27,396 bases of DNA, taken from the IMG/VR virus record IMGVR_UViG_2541047887_000006. One strand, given 5' to 3'. Under the pieces are notes generated by a model that saw only the letters and a program-made list of their open reading frames with translations, had not been told where the DNA came from and did not search any database. Below are positions 1 to 8,721 of this stretch, piece by piece; position 1 is the stretch's first letter; the number at the start of each line of letters is the position of its first letter. The translations under genes were made by a program, and so were the position numbers. The DNA is from a virus (Duplodnaviria; Heunggongvirae; Uroviricota; Caudoviricetes).

Positions 1-334
1 TCAGCCAACAAATTTAGCAACAAATACAGCAACCGCCGCCGTGAAAATGGTTGTGCATACTGGCACAATAATGCCACTCCAACGCCACTTCGTATTATCA
101 TCAACCTTGTCAAACCGCCGATTCATCTCATCCATAATCTTGTCAAAGCGTTTATCCATCGCTTCGGTAAGCTCACCCTTCAGGCTGTTAATGTCTGATT
201 TGAGCTGCTCTTTCAGGTGAGCTGTATCAGATTTAAGCTCACCTTTCAGATTCGCAATATCGCATTTAAGATCACCTTTCAGATGAGCAATGTCTGCTTT
301 GAGCTCACCTTTCACCTCACCAACATCGGCTTTG
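1..334 (-). pseudogene. 3' portion of an IS911-interrupted gene: coiled-coil protein with five 11-aa tandem repeats and a C-terminal hydrophobic anchor; function unknown
   Basis: ORF track 1..315 (its GTG at 315 is just the first start after the IS). Frame is continuous with 1588..1784 once IS911 and one GTT copy are removed. Stop TGA at 3..1. C-terminal hydrophobic stretch IIVPVCTTIFTAAVAVFVAKFV. Confidence 0.6.
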
Positions 335-335
335 G
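171..335 (-). repeat. Five imperfect 33-bp tandem repeats, in frame, encoding 11-aa units (K-x-D-I/T-A/G-x-L/V-K-G-E/D-L)
   Basis: Units read directly at 171-203, 204-236, 237-269, 270-302, 303-335, sharing the core gctcacctttcag...atttga. Confidence 0.85.
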
Positions 336-367
336 TTTGAAGTGGTCAACAAAAACTGGCCACCGAG

Positions 368-1515
<1,148 letters not shown>

Positions 1516-1587
1516 TATGGCACCTGTGTTGTTCTGAGGTGAGCATATCACCTCTGTTCAGGTGGCCAAATTCAGTAAACCACTTCA

Positions 1588-1784
1588 GTTGAGAGGTTTG
1601 TAGTGCGTTCAGCAAGCGTCGCAAGGTCGTTTCTTGTTAGCGATAAATCACCTTCGAGCCGCTCAATTCGCCTTTCAAGTTTATCTGACATTCCGCCTCC
1701 ACTATCACCGCCTCCCCCATCGAAAGAATTGCCAATGTCCTCACGAATAAGGGTTATGCCATGCTCACTTTTAGCATATGCCAC
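1588..1784 (-). pseudogene. 5' portion of the IS911-interrupted coiled-coil gene
   Basis: GTG start at 1784-1782 preceded by GGGAGGG 7 nt upstream (minus strand). The track ORF 1572..1784 reads 5 codons into the IS end before stopping. N-terminal region has a Gly/Asp-rich stretch GGGGDSGGG. Confidence 0.55.
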
Positions 1785-2183
1785 TCAGATTCCCTCCCAA
1801 ACTATATATCCTTTGTCTCTTGCCCAACAAACAACTGTGTGGGCTGTATATGTGGATGTGAAGCCGCAATAAGAACATGACACTTCATACCGAGTATTGT
1901 AGATGTTAATGGGCTCGTTCTCCTTGTGTATGGGAGTGACATATTCCCAATCATTTGAATCATCATAATCATCAAGTTCAGGGTCTGTGCCGTGAACAAC
2001 CGTATGTGGAATAAACAAATCTGGGCGCCCACACGAGAGACAAGAGGTTCTGGCTCCTCTATCTTTGAGGAATTGAATAAATAATTTGGGCGAAATCTGT
2101 TGCAGAACCTGCAAATGCCCACGTTCATTATCATTAAGAGACCTGTCTGCATATGGAAAATCATCAAATTTAAGAGGCTTCAT
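1785..2183 (-). CDS. Hypothetical Cys-rich protein (two CxxC motifs, CLSCG and CSYCG); AT-rich cargo gene translationally coupled to int
   Basis: ORF track 1785..2198. ATG at 2183 has GGAG 9 nt upstream; the start lies 11 nt inside the int 3' end. Stop TGA at 1787-1785 abuts the next gene's GTG. Confidence 0.5.
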   Translation of the reverse strand: MKPLKFDDFPYADRSLNDNERGHLQVLQQISPKLFIQFLKDRGARTSCLSCGRPDLFIPHTVVHGTDPELDDYDDSNDWEYVTPIHKENEPINIYNTRYEVSCSYCGFTSTYTAHTVVCWARDKGYIVWEGI

Positions 2184-3162
2184 ATAAGGCATCTCCAAGG
2201 GGATTAAATCTCACCGCATCCTGCAGGTAATCCGGCGCAAGATGGGCATAAATCATCGTTGTCTGAATCTTTGCGTGCCCCAAAATTTTCTGGAGGGTCA
2301 GAATATTGCCGCCGTTCATCATGAAATGACTGGCGAAGGTGTGGCGCAGCGCATGAACAGCCTGGCCGTCAGGAACATCAGGTGCGACCGTTTTGATGAC
2401 ATCGCGAACCAATGAATAATCCAGCGTCGGAAACACCAGTTTCCCGCCCCGTTTTTTGATCTTTTCAAACAGGCTTTCAGAAATAGGAACGGTACGGTTT
2501 TTGCTGTTCTTCGTTTTTGAAAAAGTGATTCGACAATGAAGAACACGGCGCTGCTCCAGTGCCGCTACCTCGCCCCATCGCGCCCCGGTCGACAGAAGGA
2601 TTTCGACAGCCAGCCGTTCATCGGGATTTTCAGCCAGTGCATCCAGCAACTGAACACATTCAGACTTACTCAGGTATCCCATTTCGCGCTCGTTAACCTT
2701 CATTCCTTTAAGGCCTTGAACGGGGTTATCGTTAAGAAAATGGCCGGATGAGATGAGTGCGGTAAACATCGCGCTTAACGCCCCAATCTCTCGATTTATG
2801 GTGCTGGGCTGTATCCCCTGCTCTATCCTGGACACACGTAGCTCGGTGAGCATCGTTGTATTAAGTTTATGCACGCACGGGTCATCCATTGCTTCACTCA
2901 AGCGCAGCAATTTAAGGCGCGTGTTATGCCCTGACTTCATTAGCTGGCCGTGGTATTTCCACCACAAGTCAATAAGCACTGACAGAGGACGGCGATCAAT
3001 AGAGTTTCCTTTCCACTCATTGTTATGCTGTTGCGCCAGCACCCACCGCTCATATAAAACTGCATCCGATTTCGTTTTAAATTTTTTGCGAATGCGTTTG
3101 CCTTTACGCCCCTCAGGGCGCATGTCAAGAAGATACCCTCCCGGAATTGATTTTATGCTCAT
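2170..3162 (-). CDS. int: P2-type tyrosine integrase
   Basis: ORF track 2170..3312; internal ATG at 3162 matches the P2 Int N-terminus (MSIKS... vs MAIKKL...). Catalytic motifs ARWGE, HALRHTFAS, IYAHL. Lies directly downstream of C as in P2. Confidence 0.93.
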   Translation of the reverse strand: MSIKSIPGGYLLDMRPEGRKGKRIRKKFKTKSDAVLYERWVLAQQHNNEWKGNSIDRRPLSVLIDLWWKYHGQLMKSGHNTRLKLLRLSEAMDDPCVHKLNTTMLTELRVSRIEQGIQPSTINREIGALSAMFTALISSGHFLNDNPVQGLKGMKVNEREMGYLSKSECVQLLDALAENPDERLAVEILLSTGARWGEVAALEQRRVLHCRITFSKTKNSKNRTVPISESLFEKIKKRGGKLVFPTLDYSLVRDVIKTVAPDVPDGQAVHALRHTFASHFMMNGGNILTLQKILGHAKIQTTMIYAHLAPDYLQDAVRFNPLGDALYEAS

Positions 3163-3211
3163 TCGTGAAACCCCAGCGTTACAAGACCACCATGCCCCCA
3201 GCGTTCCATGA

Positions 3212-3520
3212 TTAGCCGGGCTGTGTACCAGTCTTGCGGGATTTTTGAGAAGACGATGTGTTTTCTGGCCCATCAGGGGAGAGAGAGGGACTGATCTGCC
3301 CAGCAGCCTCATTTGTTTTTCCCGTCATAAGCCAATTCATGTACTTAAAAAAGCGAGGGTGATTAACAATCTTGATAAGCACTTCGCCCCCTATGTTTTC
3401 AATCCGCCCCGTTTCATAACGACGCAAAGTGCCGATAGGCACATCAATCAGGCCGCAAAATTCTTCGCGCGTTAAATCCTCTGATTCACGAATCACTCTA
3501 ATTTTTTCACCGATAAGCAT
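3212..3520 (-). CDS. C: P2 C-type immunity repressor
   Basis: ATG at 3520 with AGGAA upstream. 102 aa resembling P2 C (EKI...L.R...L.......G.P.GTL..YE.GR ... GQI.P.L...G.....S...QK.G). Confidence 0.85.
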   Translation of the reverse strand: MLIGEKIRVIRESEDLTREEFCGLIDVPIGTLRRYETGRIENIGGEVLIKIVNHPRFFKYMNWLMTGKTNEAAGQISPSLSPDGPENTSSSQKSRKTGTQPG

Positions 3521-3616
3521 TGACAGTGTTCCTATAAGTACACTAAGCTTGCGCACAAGGTGTACTTATAAGTACACCAAGTCACAAACAACCACAGATA
3601 GCGCAGGTTATCACAC
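3521..3616. promoter_or_regulatory. Immunity-switch region between divergent C and cox-like genes, with operator-like repeats
   Basis: Perfect 18-bp palindrome GTGTACTTATAAGTACAC at 3560-3577, plus an upstream direct copy TATAAGTACAC at 3533-3543. TTGACA hexamer at 3520-3525. Promoter assignment itself is inferred. Confidence 0.5.
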
Positions 3617-3895
3617 ATGGCAAAAGTCCTGAACACACACGAACAGGCAGACTTTGAGCGTTTAGCAGCGTTCTATCCCTACCGCGATGAGCATGGGTTA
3701 CCAGTACTTGAAGAAAGCCTGAAAGATTACGCAAAGCGTACCAACCAAGCTGTTAACACAGTGAAAAGACAGGCTGACAGAGGTTCAATTCCCATCAACC
3801 AAGATGAAAAGAACTCAAGACGCACAGTAAATCTCTTCGCTCTTTTCCTGAAAACAATCAGGAGCGCAGAAAAATACGTGCAGATGACAAAATAA
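3617..3895 (+). CDS. cox: Cox-like excisionase / early-promoter regulator (putative)
   Basis: First gene of the rightward early operon, divergent from C, 92 aa. Position and size match P2 cox; sequence similarity is weak. Confidence 0.5.
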   Translation: MAKVLNTHEQADFERLAAFYPYRDEHGLPVLEESLKDYAKRTNQAVNTVKRQADRGSIPINQDEKNSRRTVNLFALFLKTIRSAEKYVQMTK

Positions 3896-3909
3896 CGAGG
3901 TGTCATTTT

Positions 3910-4248
3910 ATGCTGAAGCAACGCCGTAATTTTCGTACCGGAACAGAACGCCACGCTAACCGTTTCACTACCAGTGCATCACGCAGCAACATCCGCTACA
4001 GCCTGAGTGATACACACGCAACGCCGGATAGCTACCCAGTAAAACAAATCGGCGAGCACACCTGGCTGATTGAGAAAGCTGGAATCGTGATCCACAAATG
4101 CCCACGCAATCCGTTTACCGGAAACCGCATTTTTGCATTGAGCTGTGGCGACAATCAGTTCGGGCAGGATTTCACATTATACGAAGCACTTCGCACGGTT
4201 GATCGTCTGCTTCGCGGGCAAAGTTTTATTAAACAGACTGATTTATAA
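3910..4248 (+). CDS. Hypothetical early protein
   Basis: ATG 3910 with GAGGTG 8 nt upstream. ORF track 112 aa. Confidence 0.6.
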   Translation: MLKQRRNFRTGTERHANRFTTSASRSNIRYSLSDTHATPDSYPVKQIGEHTWLIEKAGIVIHKCPRNPFTGNRIFALSCGDNQFGQDFTLYEALRTVDRLLRGQSFIKQTDL

Positions 4249-5955: not shown

Positions 5956-8721
5956 ATGACGGCAGAGTACATCAGGGACTGGCAACAACCGCGCCACGCA
6001 GTGGGGCGTGAAGGAACGGGGATCCCCGCTCCTGAATCCGCGCTTTCCTCCTGGCTGGATGCCTACCGGGTAGAGAACGAGCGCCGCCAGGAAATGGCTG
6101 ATGCGGCGTTCTCCGCAACGCCGCTGGGCAACCTGATTAATAAAAGCCTGGACGCACAGGAAAAACAGGACAAAACCATCACACTGGCAGGAGATGCCAG
6201 AAAACAGGCACGCGGCGCGGTGGATGAAGCCATGGCCTCGCTGCGCCTGCTGCCGTCCTATCTGCGCGATCCGCTTATTCGCCACCTCTCCTTCCTGCGC
6301 AAAAAACAGGAAGCCGATCGTCAGAAAGGCAAAAAGAGCTGGCAGGCTGAACGCTACGCGCGCGGAAACCTGCGCAAAATATTCGAACGTCTGGAGCGCA
6401 CCGATCACCGCTGGCTGACACAGGGTTATCGCTCCCTTGCCGGACGCGAACGCCTGGACGATTTGCTTTACCTGCCGCAGCTCAACAAACACCAGATACA
6501 GACACTGGCCACCATGACGGCGGCGATGTTCAGCAGCACCTTCGAAAAACTCTGCGATGGCTTTGGCGCGACCGATGGCGAACTGACCATGGATGTAACG
6601 CTGAAGGCGTATCAGATGCTGGCCCGCATGGCGTTACACCTGCACGCCATGCCTCCACATTATGACGCACTGACAACAGACAAAGACCGGAGGAACGAAC
6701 CGGACACGGAGCTGCTGCCGGGCGCAATCCTTCGCCTGACCTGTGCAGAATGGTGGAAACGCAAACTGTGGCTGTTACGTTGCGAGTGGAGAGAAGAACA
6801 ACTCCGCGCCGCCTGTCTGGTTTCCAGAAAAACATCGCCCTATCTGAGCCAGGACGCGTTAAGCGAGTTTCGCGCACAGCGCGAGAAAACACGCGATTTC
6901 CTGAAAAGTTTCATGCTGGAAAATGAAGACGGGTTCACGATTGATCTCGAGACAGTGTATTACGCGGGAGTAAGTAACCCGGTTCACCGTAAGGCAGAAA
7001 TGATGGCCACCATGAAGGGGCTGGAACTTCTGGCCGAAGCCCGTGGTGACAAAGCGGTGTTTCTGACTGTCACCTGCCCGTCAAAATACCACGCAACAAC
7101 GGAGAACGGTCATCCGAACCCCAAATGGAACGGGGCCACCATGCGCGACTCCAGCGATTACCTGGTTAACACGTTTTTTGCGGCGGTCCGCAAAAAACTG
7201 AACCGCGACGGCCTGCGCTGGTATGGCATCCGCACGGTGGAGCCTCACCATGACGGCACCGTGCACTGGCATATGATGGTCTTTGCTCATCCGGAAGAAA
7301 TCGACAGCATCGTGGCCATCACCCGCGATATTGCCATTCAGGAAGATCGTCACGAACTGGGCGATGATATTACTCCGCGCTTTAAGGCGGAGTATGTCGA
7401 CGGCTCAAAAGGCACACCAACCAGCTATATCGCGACCTACATCGGAAAAAACCTGGACAGCCGCGCCGTAGATGGCATCGACCCGAAAACGGGCAAGCCA
7501 CGCGTTGACCACGAAACCGAAAAATCAATGGCCGAGAGCGTGGAGCGCGCCATTGGCTGGGCGCGTCTTCATCGGGTCCGCCAGTTCCAGTTCTTTGGCA
7601 TCCCCTCCCGTCAGGTATGGCGTGAACTCCGCCGCCTTGCCAGCCAGATGGCACGCAACCCGGAAGGCCCGCAACGGCTGAAGGATGATGCAATGGATGC
7701 GGTACTCGCTGCCGCTGATGCCGGGTGTTTTGCCTCCTACATTGAAAAACAGGGCGGCGTACTTGTTCCACGTAAAGACTACCTGATTCGCACCGCCTAC
7801 GACCTCGCAGATGAGCTGAACGATTACGGCGAGCAGAGTGTACAGATTTACGGGATCTGGTCGCCGCTCATCGGGGAGTCTTCCCGCGTGTGCACGCACC
7901 CGGATAACTGGAAGCTGGTAAGACGTAAACCGGAAGCGGAAGACAGCGCCCGCGAAAATGGTTTTGACCTTCAGGGCGGCCCTGCCGCCCCTTGGACTCG
8001 TGGCAATAACTGTCCCCGTGTACAGGAAACGGACAACAACGGGACAGAACAGCCGGAAGAACGGCCAGCACCGTGGCCGCAGCTTCCTGACGGCGTTGAT
8101 GTGGATGAATGGATGCGCTCACTGAAACGGCAAGAACGCCGGGCGCTGATGCGTTCGCTGCGTGACAAACAGGCAAAAAACAGCAGTGATGAAATGCAGA
8201 GCTGGACACAGAGCCGCAAACAGCAGCGGCCTTTGCCTGATAACCACGAATTACTCGCTAAAGAATGGCGGGAATCTGCTGAATCTCTCGGCCTGCATAT
8301 CGGTGAACAGCAGATGCAGCACCTGTTACGGGGCGGCAGCCTGTACGTTGACGGCAGCATCATTGCACCGCAGGGATTTGAAATTGTACGCAAACCGGAT
8401 ACCCGCCCGGACAGCCGAATCACGCAGCTCTGGCAGCGCCTGAGCCGTAATCACGGCGTAAGCAGCACGGAGATCCGCCATAACCCGGTCGCCAGCTATC
8501 TGGAACAGCTGGGGGCATCAGACCCCGAAGCCGCCGCACGCATGGTATCCACACTTCAGCAGGACCAGAACACCATGAAAACCCCCGTTACCGTGCTTTC
8601 TGACATGCTGCGCGTCATCCGTGACGCAGAGCACGCACAGAGAATCAATGAAACCACTGAACGCGCACGTCACAAGGCGGGTCTGTTGCAGGACAAAGGC
8701 AATAGCGAGAAGAAAAAATAA
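5956..8721 (+). CDS. A: P2 A-type rolling-circle replication initiation endonuclease
   Basis: 921 aa. HUH motif TVHWHMMVF and tyrosine pair SYIATYIGKN as in P2 gpA. Confidence 0.9.
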   Translation: MTAEYIRDWQQPRHAVGREGTGIPAPESALSSWLDAYRVENERRQEMADAAFSATPLGNLINKSLDAQEKQDKTITLAGDARKQARGAVDEAMASLRLLPSYLRDPLIRHLSFLRKKQEADRQKGKKSWQAERYARGNLRKIFERLERTDHRWLTQGYRSLAGRERLDDLLYLPQLNKHQIQTLATMTAAMFSSTFEKLCDGFGATDGELTMDVTLKAYQMLARMALHLHAMPPHYDALTTDKDRRNEPDTELLPGAILRLTCAEWWKRKLWLLRCEWREEQLRAACLVSRKTSPYLSQDALSEFRAQREKTRDFLKSFMLENEDGFTIDLETVYYAGVSNPVHRKAEMMATMKGLELLAEARGDKAVFLTVTCPSKYHATTENGHPNPKWNGATMRDSSDYLVNTFFAAVRKKLNRDGLRWYGIRTVEPHHDGTVHWHMMVFAHPEEIDSIVAITRDIAIQEDRHELGDDITPRFKAEYVDGSKGTPTSYIATYIGKNLDSRAVDGIDPKTGKPRVDHETEKSMAESVERAIGWARLHRVRQFQFFGIPSRQVWRELRRLASQMARNPEGPQRLKDDAMDAVLAAADAGCFASYIEKQGGVLVPRKDYLIRTAYDLADELNDYGEQSVQIYGIWSPLIGESSRVCTHPDNWKLVRRKPEAEDSARENGFDLQGGPAAPWTRGNNCPRVQETDNNGTEQPEERPAPWPQLPDGVDVDEWMRSLKRQERRALMRSLRDKQAKNSSDEMQSWTQSRKQQRPLPDNHELLAKEWRESAESLGLHIGEQQMQHLLRGGSLYVDGSIIAPQGFEIVRKPDTRPDSRITQLWQRLSRNHGVSSTEIRHNPVASYLEQLGASDPEAAARMVSTLQQDQNTMKTPVTVLSDMLRVIRDAEHAQRINETTERARHKAGLLQDKGNSEKKK

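Follow-up and report, generated by a model that had tools for sequence, protein, structure and literature searches.

Palindromic operator candidates in the C/cox switch region of a P2-like prophage

The region between the immunity repressor gene C and the neighboring cox-like gene decides, in phages related to P2, between lysis and lysogeny. Here we describe this region in the virus record IMGVR_UViG_2541047887_000006 of IMG/VR (Caudoviricetes), a stretch of 27,396 nucleotides that we refer to as the window in the following. We find that it holds two tandem copies, O1 and O2, of a single dyad-symmetric element. It appears likely, with a probability of roughly 0.7, that positions 3520-3578 form a promoter-operator region, Pe/O1/O2, that controls early transcription in a P2-type lysis/lysogeny switch with an uncharacterized immunity specificity, in which each operator would be bound by one dimer of C. 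Four lines of evidence carry this reading: the anatomy of the sites, the membership of C in the P2 C family, the conservation and symmetric covariation of the two boxes in relatives, and their inheritance together with the DNA-binding part of C.

The gap between the start codon of C (3520-3518, minus strand) and the ATG of the cox-like gene (3617) comprises 96 bp (3521-3616). An earlier note on this DNA had located a perfect 18-bp palindrome, GTGTACTTATAAGTACAC, at 3560-3577 and a direct copy of its half-site, TATAAGTACAC, at 3533-3543, and these coordinates as well as the length of the gap proved exact. The anatomy, however, is not that of one palindrome accompanied by a half-site, but that of two tandem copies of one dyad-symmetric operator. 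The perfect palindrome, O2, extends to the 20-mer GGTGTACTTATAAGTACACC, in which a repeat finder recovers 10 of 10 pairs, and the upstream element, O1, comprises 18 bp, GTGTTCCTATAAGTACAC, of which 16 match O2 and which forms 8 of the 10 dyad pairs. When both are framed as 22-mers (3526-3547 and 3560-3581), they are 86% identical and lie 34 bp apart, start to start. The apparent half-site copy is the well-kept right half of this second full operator copy.

All other perfect palindromes in the window have arms of at most 7 bp. When the whole window was simulated with a first-order Markov model, arms of at least 10 bp appeared anywhere in 32 of 1000 runs (3.2%), and the chance of finding them in a given 96-bp gap is therefore about 1e-4. 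A search with the 18-mer, allowing up to three mismatches, returned two sites in the window, O1 and O2, with no distal third operator; two matches were obtained in 0 of 100 shuffles. Together with the conservation in relatives described below, these statistics rule out a chance origin of the palindrome. A half-site-like sequence, TTTAAGTACAT, at 3339-3349 was dismissed as an operator, as it falls within the codons of C for the conserved residues FFKYMNW. Unrelated viral contigs (L052, L060, L064 and others; L088 and L095) contain the exact 18-mer as well, always inside coding sequence: it either encodes GVLISTP in an antirepressor-like open reading frame (ORF) or lies in an ORF that resembles an RNA-dependent RNA polymerase with a GDD motif. 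We regard these occurrences as coincidence, not as operators.

The predictions of the early promoter Pe and of the C promoter Pc rest on a position weight matrix (PWM) scan and on homology to P2 and WPhi. The top-scoring promoter of the region is TTGACA-18-TAAGCT, with a predicted start near 3555-3557, and the pattern TTGACA-17/18-TANNNT is also top-scoring in four other immunity classes and in WPhi. Homology and conservation make this prediction of Pe a strong one. O1 and O2 flank the predicted -10 element with 34 bp from center to center (Table 1). On the minus strand, the best candidate for Pc (-10 TATCTG at 3600-3595, -35 TTGCCA at 3623-3618) has a weak PWM score of 8.0 and is tentative; its -10 element would lie 51 bp from that of Pe, compared with 55 bp in the P2 annotation.

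The imperfection of O1 has a plausible explanation of its own. Its minus strand reads GTGTACTTATAGGAACAC, and the two bases that break the symmetry create the motif AGGAA 8 nt upstream of the C start, a plausible Shine-Dalgarno sequence of C. The corresponding CC at 3531-3532 is invariant in the 12 aligned relatives and is the sole position of O1 that never pairs. The need to encode the Shine-Dalgarno sequence on the other strand would then account for the imperfect left half of O1, so that what looked like a direct half-site copy would be the unconstrained right half of a full operator.

The product of 3520..3212 is a P2 C-family repressor by both sequence and fold. It matches the Pfam family HTH_3 and phrog_147 (E=2.5e-31), aligns with P2 C (PDB 2L49/2XCJ) over residues 3-98 in phmmer (E=4e-16), and its gene carries the identical annotation in Escherichia coli SE11. 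An AlphaFold2 monomer model with a predicted local distance difference test score (pLDDT) of 81 shows five helices and a disordered tail (residues 84-102, pLDDT <50). Its best fold match in Foldseek is 2xcj_A (template modeling score 0.85, root-mean-square deviation 1.4 Å, 42% identity), with the operator complexes of P22 c2 coming next. By homology to 2XCJ, the protein is expected to dimerize. For P2 C, residues with backbone or scaffold contacts have been distinguished from proposed specificity positions (PMC2995052). In our alignment, R13, R20, T33, L34, Y37, E38 and R41 of P2 C are conserved as R11, R18, T31, L32, Y35, E36 and R39, whereas the proposed specificity residues Y31, S35 and Y36 are replaced by I29, R33 and R34. 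Together with the match of the neighboring gene to phrog_575, 'Cox-like excisionase and repressor' (E=1.1e-7), these similarities bear out the earlier assignment of the region to the C/cox switch of a P2-like prophage.

To place the boxes in an evolutionary context, we assembled a series of C homologs by protein search and recovered their flanking DNA from the respective contigs. The set comprises an E. coli variant (C 88% identical), a Klebsiella-type viral contig (70%) and ten further loci (62-83%) from Klebsiella, Yersinia, Salmonella (three), Edwardsiella, Providencia and three metagenomes. A profile scan of genome contigs with a three-sequence alignment had returned two near-identical loci; the diverged relatives came from the protein search. 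With C proteins that are 62-88% identical, these relatives cover six genera (Escherichia, Klebsiella, Yersinia, Salmonella, Edwardsiella and Providencia), and all share the helix-3 core GT[LM]RRYET. We aligned 12 sequences, namely the window, the E. coli variant and the ten further loci, and found a common order of TTGACA, O1, TAANNT, a short variable stretch and O2, with 33-34 bp between O1 and O2. Rather than being absent from relatives of the same immunity, a possibility that the earlier note had considered, the palindrome is kept along with O1 in all eleven relatives, and both boxes are far better conserved than the variable stretch and the sequence to the right of O2 (Table 1).

The dyad symmetry of O2 is retained in 95% of cells across the 12 sequences, that of O1 in 73%, with one pair that never forms. 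Of the ten O2 pairs, four never vary and three carry changes on both sides, a number reached in 6 of 500 shuffles. Such symmetric double changes are found in two lineages, namely in Yersinia (GGTGTTC...GAACACC) and in a metagenomic relative (ACTGTAC...GTACAGT). Two further observations concern the sampled loci themselves. In one metagenomic relative (L183, 862-1149), a second HTH_3 ORF of 95 amino acids lies between C and the integrase gene. The same enterobacterial immunity region, with 98% protein identity and one mutated O2 arm (GGTGTGC...), also appears on a 226-kb contig labeled Vagococcus sp. (L099, NZ_JBQPOM010000071.1), which is probably a case of assembly contamination or mislabeling.

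The distribution of the boxes follows that of the DNA-binding part of C, but not that of cox. The region is 100% identical to an E. coli SE11 prophage that is located between btuC and ihfA and has P2-family late genes, and the immunity region is present in about 119 of 5,426 complete E. coli genomes (~2%). The loci from Klebsiella, Yersinia, Edwardsiella and Providencia have the same boxes, yet unrelated right intergenic halves and different cox-like genes; in Klebsiella, even the identical O2 20-mer stands beside a different cox gene. The opposite combination occurs in about 112 E. coli genomes: 3580-3720 and the cox-like gene are shared at 83-85% identity, and int and the C tail are nearly as in the window, whereas the N-terminus of C and the boxes differ. 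Compared with two E. coli classes (L003 and L004), identity is 0.96-1.00 up to 3299 (int and C tail), 0.48-0.72 over 3350-3599 and mostly 0.76-0.98 beyond 3599, with one dip to 0.60 at 3750-3799 versus L003. When L005 is included in the comparison, the cox-like gene is mostly 76-94% identical, and the right-hand joint falls at about 3579-3584, a few bases from O2. Judged by these sequence comparisons, the operators and the DNA-binding/dimerization part of C are exchanged together and independently of cox. The boxes thus probably behave as an immunity determinant, and the exchanged segment of about 270 bp looks as such a cassette should. The earlier suggestion that the element defines the immunity specificity of this phage is thereby strengthened, given that the boxes are conserved with the recognition-helix core in six genera and swapped with the DNA-binding part of C.

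The P2-like coliphages have been sorted into the named immunity classes I-X, for which C must be at least 95% identical to the class representative. The C protein of the window is about 47% identical to that of class I (P2), and no phage record exceeds 53%. It does not belong to class I, to class III (WPhi), from which it differs in helix 3, or to class IX (UTI89), but it could already be named among classes II (P2 Hy dis), IV-VIII or X. A DNA search of the phage collection with 3150-3950 gave no match, and the immunity class is therefore absent from the sequenced phage isolates in that collection.

The arrangement itself is not as unusual as the earlier note had supposed. Among viral contigs, we find about ten classes with another helix 3 that have a different but again palindromic O2 (for instance GGTACGTATACGTACC, GGTAGCAATTGCTACC, GGAGCTAATTAGCTCC and GGGTTCTTTAAGGAACCC; most at p<=0.03 versus shuffles) and an imperfect O1 31-34 bp upstream. 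Palindromic O2 boxes are likewise present in the L-413C-type Peduovirus C, in UTI89 PhiECO5 and in the E. coli class L004, each equaled by 0 of 300 shuffles. Across the classes, changes in the box sequence track helix 3 of the repressor. In contrast, the E. coli class L003, P2 and WPhi have no significant operator dyad under the shuffle control; hidden dyads in the P2 and WPhi operators, which we considered, were not significant and are not claimed. The family therefore holds both kinds of operators. The binding of direct repeats, from which the earlier note started, does hold for P2, P2 Hy dis and WPhi (PMC1904268). Palindromic operators find no mention in the passages on P2-like C repressor classes that we consulted.

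From these observations, we infer the following mechanism. One symmetric dimer of C would bind each operator, with both recognition helices (IGTLRRYET) reading a GGTGTAC half-site around the 6-bp center. By analogy with P2 and WPhi C, for which cooperativity and DNA bending have been shown (PMC1904263), the same is probably true of the two dimers here. When occupied, O1 in the promoter spacer and O2 at the predicted start would exclude RNA polymerase from Pe, so that cox and the early genes would remain silent and the host would be immune to phages with the same boxes. As O2 would also lie in the path of convergent Pc transcripts, high levels of C could lower C synthesis, an effect that has been reported for P2 (PMC3448106) and suggests a similar autoregulation here. 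In its crystal structure, P2 C forms a symmetric dimer that can be superimposed on P22 c2 and 434, which bind palindromes, and the authors of the structure proposed that a single helix per dimer is specific (PMC2995052). Given the palindromic boxes, this assumption of one specific helix is not needed in the window class.

Several points weigh against this interpretation. The predicted -10 element, TAAGCT, is weak, and a threshold-based promoter/terminator scanner found no promoter in the region. The symmetric covariation of O2 is equally expected of a hairpin in RNA or DNA. Within the near-identical E. coli population, the boxes are not visibly less polymorphic than their surroundings, with 2/18 and 3/18 variable positions compared with about 0.07-0.13 per site elsewhere, although these counts, from 24 distinct near-identical sequences, are too small to test. 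A spacing of 34 bp amounts to 3.2 helical turns, which would not place two dimers exactly on one face of the DNA. Lastly, the three characterized family members read non-palindromic direct repeats, and specificity has been ascribed to one helix of each dimer (PMC2995052).

The last point leads to the most serious alternative, which we nevertheless consider unlikely: C might recognize, in the manner of P2, the right halves alone, which form a direct repeat (TATAAGTACAC at 3533-3543 and 3567-3577), each dimer contributing one specific helix, and the left arm of O2 would be incidental or serve another use. In essence, this is the view taken in the earlier note. Direct repeats are used by all three characterized members, in WPhi even with the same 34-bp spacing (PMC1904268, PMC1904263); moreover, the right half of O1 is its best-conserved part (0.94), and O1, if functional, works with a degraded left half. 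However, the left arm of O2 is conserved equally with the right (0.91 for the half-sites), its changes are mirrored symmetrically in the right arm, and palindromic O2 boxes of different sequence recur in many classes. The asymmetry of O1, in turn, is independently explained by the Shine-Dalgarno sequence of C.

It is quite improbable that the symmetry of O2 serves RNA rather than a protein. In this alternative, the O2 sequence would fold into a 5' stem-loop in the transcripts from Pe and Pc, and pairing between O2 and O1 would mask the Shine-Dalgarno sequence of C and thereby control the stability or translation of the mRNA. Folding of O2 does yield a hairpin of -11.5 kcal/mol on the plus and -12.5 kcal/mol on the minus strand (z of about -3.6 to -3.9), O2 lies inside the predicted transcript overlap, and the symmetric double changes keep the pairing. 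The near identity of the two palindromes also makes the RNA copies of O1 and O2 complementary to each other, and the centroid fold of the 70-nt Pc leader (3521-3590, minus strand) pairs O2 with O1, which would bury the Shine-Dalgarno sequence. Yet the stem is conserved in sequence instead of covarying freely, as its four invariant pairs and well-conserved half-sites show, and O1 keeps its likeness to O2 without pairing of its own. The box changes, furthermore, follow helix 3 of the repressor across classes, the Rfam search gave chance sub-threshold matches only and no family, and a terminator scan found no terminator-like T run. Pairing between O1 and O2 in RNA may be a secondary, translational side effect rather than an alternative to operator function.

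We can largely dismiss the notion that the boxes are sites of another protein (Cox-like, integrase or IHF) or a chance palindrome: although P2 Cox acts in this intergenic region (PMC3448106) and the center of O2 is AT-rich, the boxes are kept beside different cox-like genes and gone beside nearly the same cox and int, the sites of Cox/Apl are short direct repeats one turn apart (PMC7498355) and not 20-bp dyads, and chance is excluded by the mismatch search with its shuffles, the Markov simulation and the conservation.

Table 1. Features of the C/cox switch region in window coordinates, with mean pairwise identities among the 12 aligned sequences
Feature	Position	Strand	Mean pairwise identity	Remarks
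C-type immunity repressor gene	3212..3520	minus		102 amino acids; predicted recognition helix 3 at residues 29-37, IGTLRRYET
Exchangeable immunity cassette (probable)	3330..3600			~270 bp; codons 1 to ~63 of C plus Pe, O1 and O2
Predicted Pe -35, TTGACA	3520..3525	plus		overlaps the last base of the C start codon; invariant in 12 relatives
Putative operator O1, GTGTTCCTATAAGTACAC	3526..3543		0.85	imperfect dyad; exactly fills the 18-bp Pe spacer; binding predicted from sequence
Right half of O1, AAGTACAC			0.94	
Putative Shine-Dalgarno sequence of C, AGGAA	3529..3533	minus		8 nt upstream of the ATG, within the left O1 half
Predicted Pe -10, TAAGCT	3544..3549	plus		PWM scan; TAANNT in relatives (TAA conserved, T6 invariant)
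Variable stretch between -10 and O2	3550..3558		0.36	9 bp
Putative operator O2, GGTGTACTTATAAGTACACC	3559..3578		0.88	half-sites GGTGTAC/GTACACC, 6-bp center; ~+3 to +23 of the predicted Pe transcript
Half-sites of O2			0.91	left arm as conserved as right
Sequence right of O2			0.33	
Right intergenic part	3579..3616			holds the cox Shine-Dalgarno sequence (AGG, 3603-3605) and the Pc candidate; travels with the cox-like gene
Cox-like gene	3617..3895	plus		92 amino acids; first gene in the early operon

The surrounding genes are those of a P2-like prophage. A leftward int-C operon, in which the integrase gene lies downstream of C, is opposed by a rightward cox-early operon that includes a GPA-family replication gene; Pfam matches in the window comprise Int_N/Phage_integrase and Phage_GPA, and the late genes are of the P2 family. 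The cox-like ORF has a local match to the helix-turn-helix of P2 Cox, and a Pfam search with it gave no match. The product of replication gene A (5956-8721) has 921 amino acids, with the Phage_GPA domain spanning residues 179-503, followed by a long C-terminal extension. The left part of the window (1-2184) has no match to the SE11 prophage, in which other cargo genes take its place. In this part, an insertion element of the IS3 family (337-1588) has inserted into an ORF for a coiled-coil protein, whose flanking halves remain at 1..315 and 1572..1784 on the minus strand. The element encodes orfA (1551..1213, HTH_Tnp_1) and orfB (1186..368, rve), and its ends read TGAAGTGG and CCACTTCA.

The analysis defines a probable immunity determinant for a type of prophage carried by about 2% of the complete E. 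coli genomes. It also indicates that the statement that all classes seem to recognize direct repeats is not general. P2 C, whose structure dates from 2010, serves as a standard example of a symmetric dimer with non-palindromic direct repeats as its sites (PMC2995052), and the window class offers a simpler, symmetric model complex for studying changes of specificity in the P2 C family. Tentatively, and with slightly less than even confidence, we suggest that the P2 C family consists at its root of dyad binders, and that the direct-repeat mode of P2, P2 Hy dis and WPhi is a decayed case in which one arm has stayed recognizable. If this is true, the window class, with its perfect 20-bp O2 and natural symmetric variants, would give a symmetric, crystallizable complex and would allow the question of how asymmetric sites came to be read by a symmetric dimer to be tested directly.

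Among the known systems, WPhi (immunity class III) provides the closest parallel. It shares the TTGACA adjoining the start codon of C, the placement of O1 within the spacer and of O2 past the start site, with both flanking the -10 element (PMC1904268, PMC1904263), the 34 bp from center to center and, by prediction, the convergent C/cox pair; its sequence runs cat-TTGACA-GTAACC[TATTGGTGAC]T-TATATT...[TATTGGTGAC], with 34 bp between the repeats (PMC1904268). The half-sites of WPhi, however, are 10-bp direct repeats, TATTGGTGAC, whose dyad is equaled by 112 of 300 shuffles, in contrast to the 18-20-bp palindromes of the window. Its intergenic region is longer (152 bp versus 96 bp), and its C protein shares the family fold but differs in helix 3 (IALGTVKNYESGH versus VPIGTLRRYETGR). 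P2 (PDB 2XCJ) likewise shares the protein family and fold, two sites that are presumably both needed, and, according to its annotation, the order of elements, with a -35 TTGACA that overlaps the start codon of C followed by O1 within the spacer, the -10 element and O2. It differs in its 8-bp non-palindromic repeats, which lie 22 bp apart and whose dyad is equaled by 136 of 300 shuffles, and in the proposed specificity residues of C, where Y, S and Y stand against I, R and R.

Two systems have the same layout together with a palindromic O2. The L-413C-type Peduovirus C, which also occurs in KC618326 ('Escherichia phage P2'), R18C and P24B2, is accompanied by TTGACA-TGGTGCCTATATAGGGAC-TAAATT...GGAACCTATATAGGTTCC, where GGAACCTATATAGGTTCC is a perfect 18-20-bp palindrome (L184, KC618326.1, positions ~395-455). 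UTI89 PhiECO5 (class IX; L173, ~35883-35985) has the palindromic O2 TTCTTCACCACATGGTGAAGAA and the same gene order as the window prophage. Both differ from the window in box sequences and helix 3, their C proteins are about 47% identical to that of the window, and their operators are, as here, predicted from the DNA itself.

Outside the family, P22 c2 and 434 show the HTH_3 fold, a symmetric dimer and a 14-18-bp palindrome with two half-sites and a non-contacted center (PMC2995052). They are, however, two-domain repressors that dimerize on DNA and act at divergent promoters with three adjacent operators shared with Cro, whereas the window system has what is probably a pre-formed dimer of a one-domain protein, two putative operators, predicted convergent promoters and a Cox with its own sites. 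With two operator copies in 27 kb, predicted convergent promoters and a Cox-like protein of another family, it is not a lambdoid operator system of the 434 or P22 c2 type. Controllers of the C.Esp1396I type, which belong to restriction-modification systems, are small HTH_3 dimers as well; palindromic boxes in direct repetition each take up one dimer, with cooperativity between them (PMC2995052). Their boxes, however, are 15 bp apart from center to center and overlap one promoter that is first activated and then repressed, and they have neither close homology to the window C nor a role in phage immunity. The window region has two putative sites flanking the predicted Pe -10 element at a distance within the 22-34 bp of P2-type switches, while each of its repeats is an 18-20-bp dyad and not one of the 8-10-bp non-palindromic direct repeats described for P2 C-type operators. 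With the same protein family and the same promoter layout, but clearly palindromic sites, it is a variant of a known switch and not a new kind of system.

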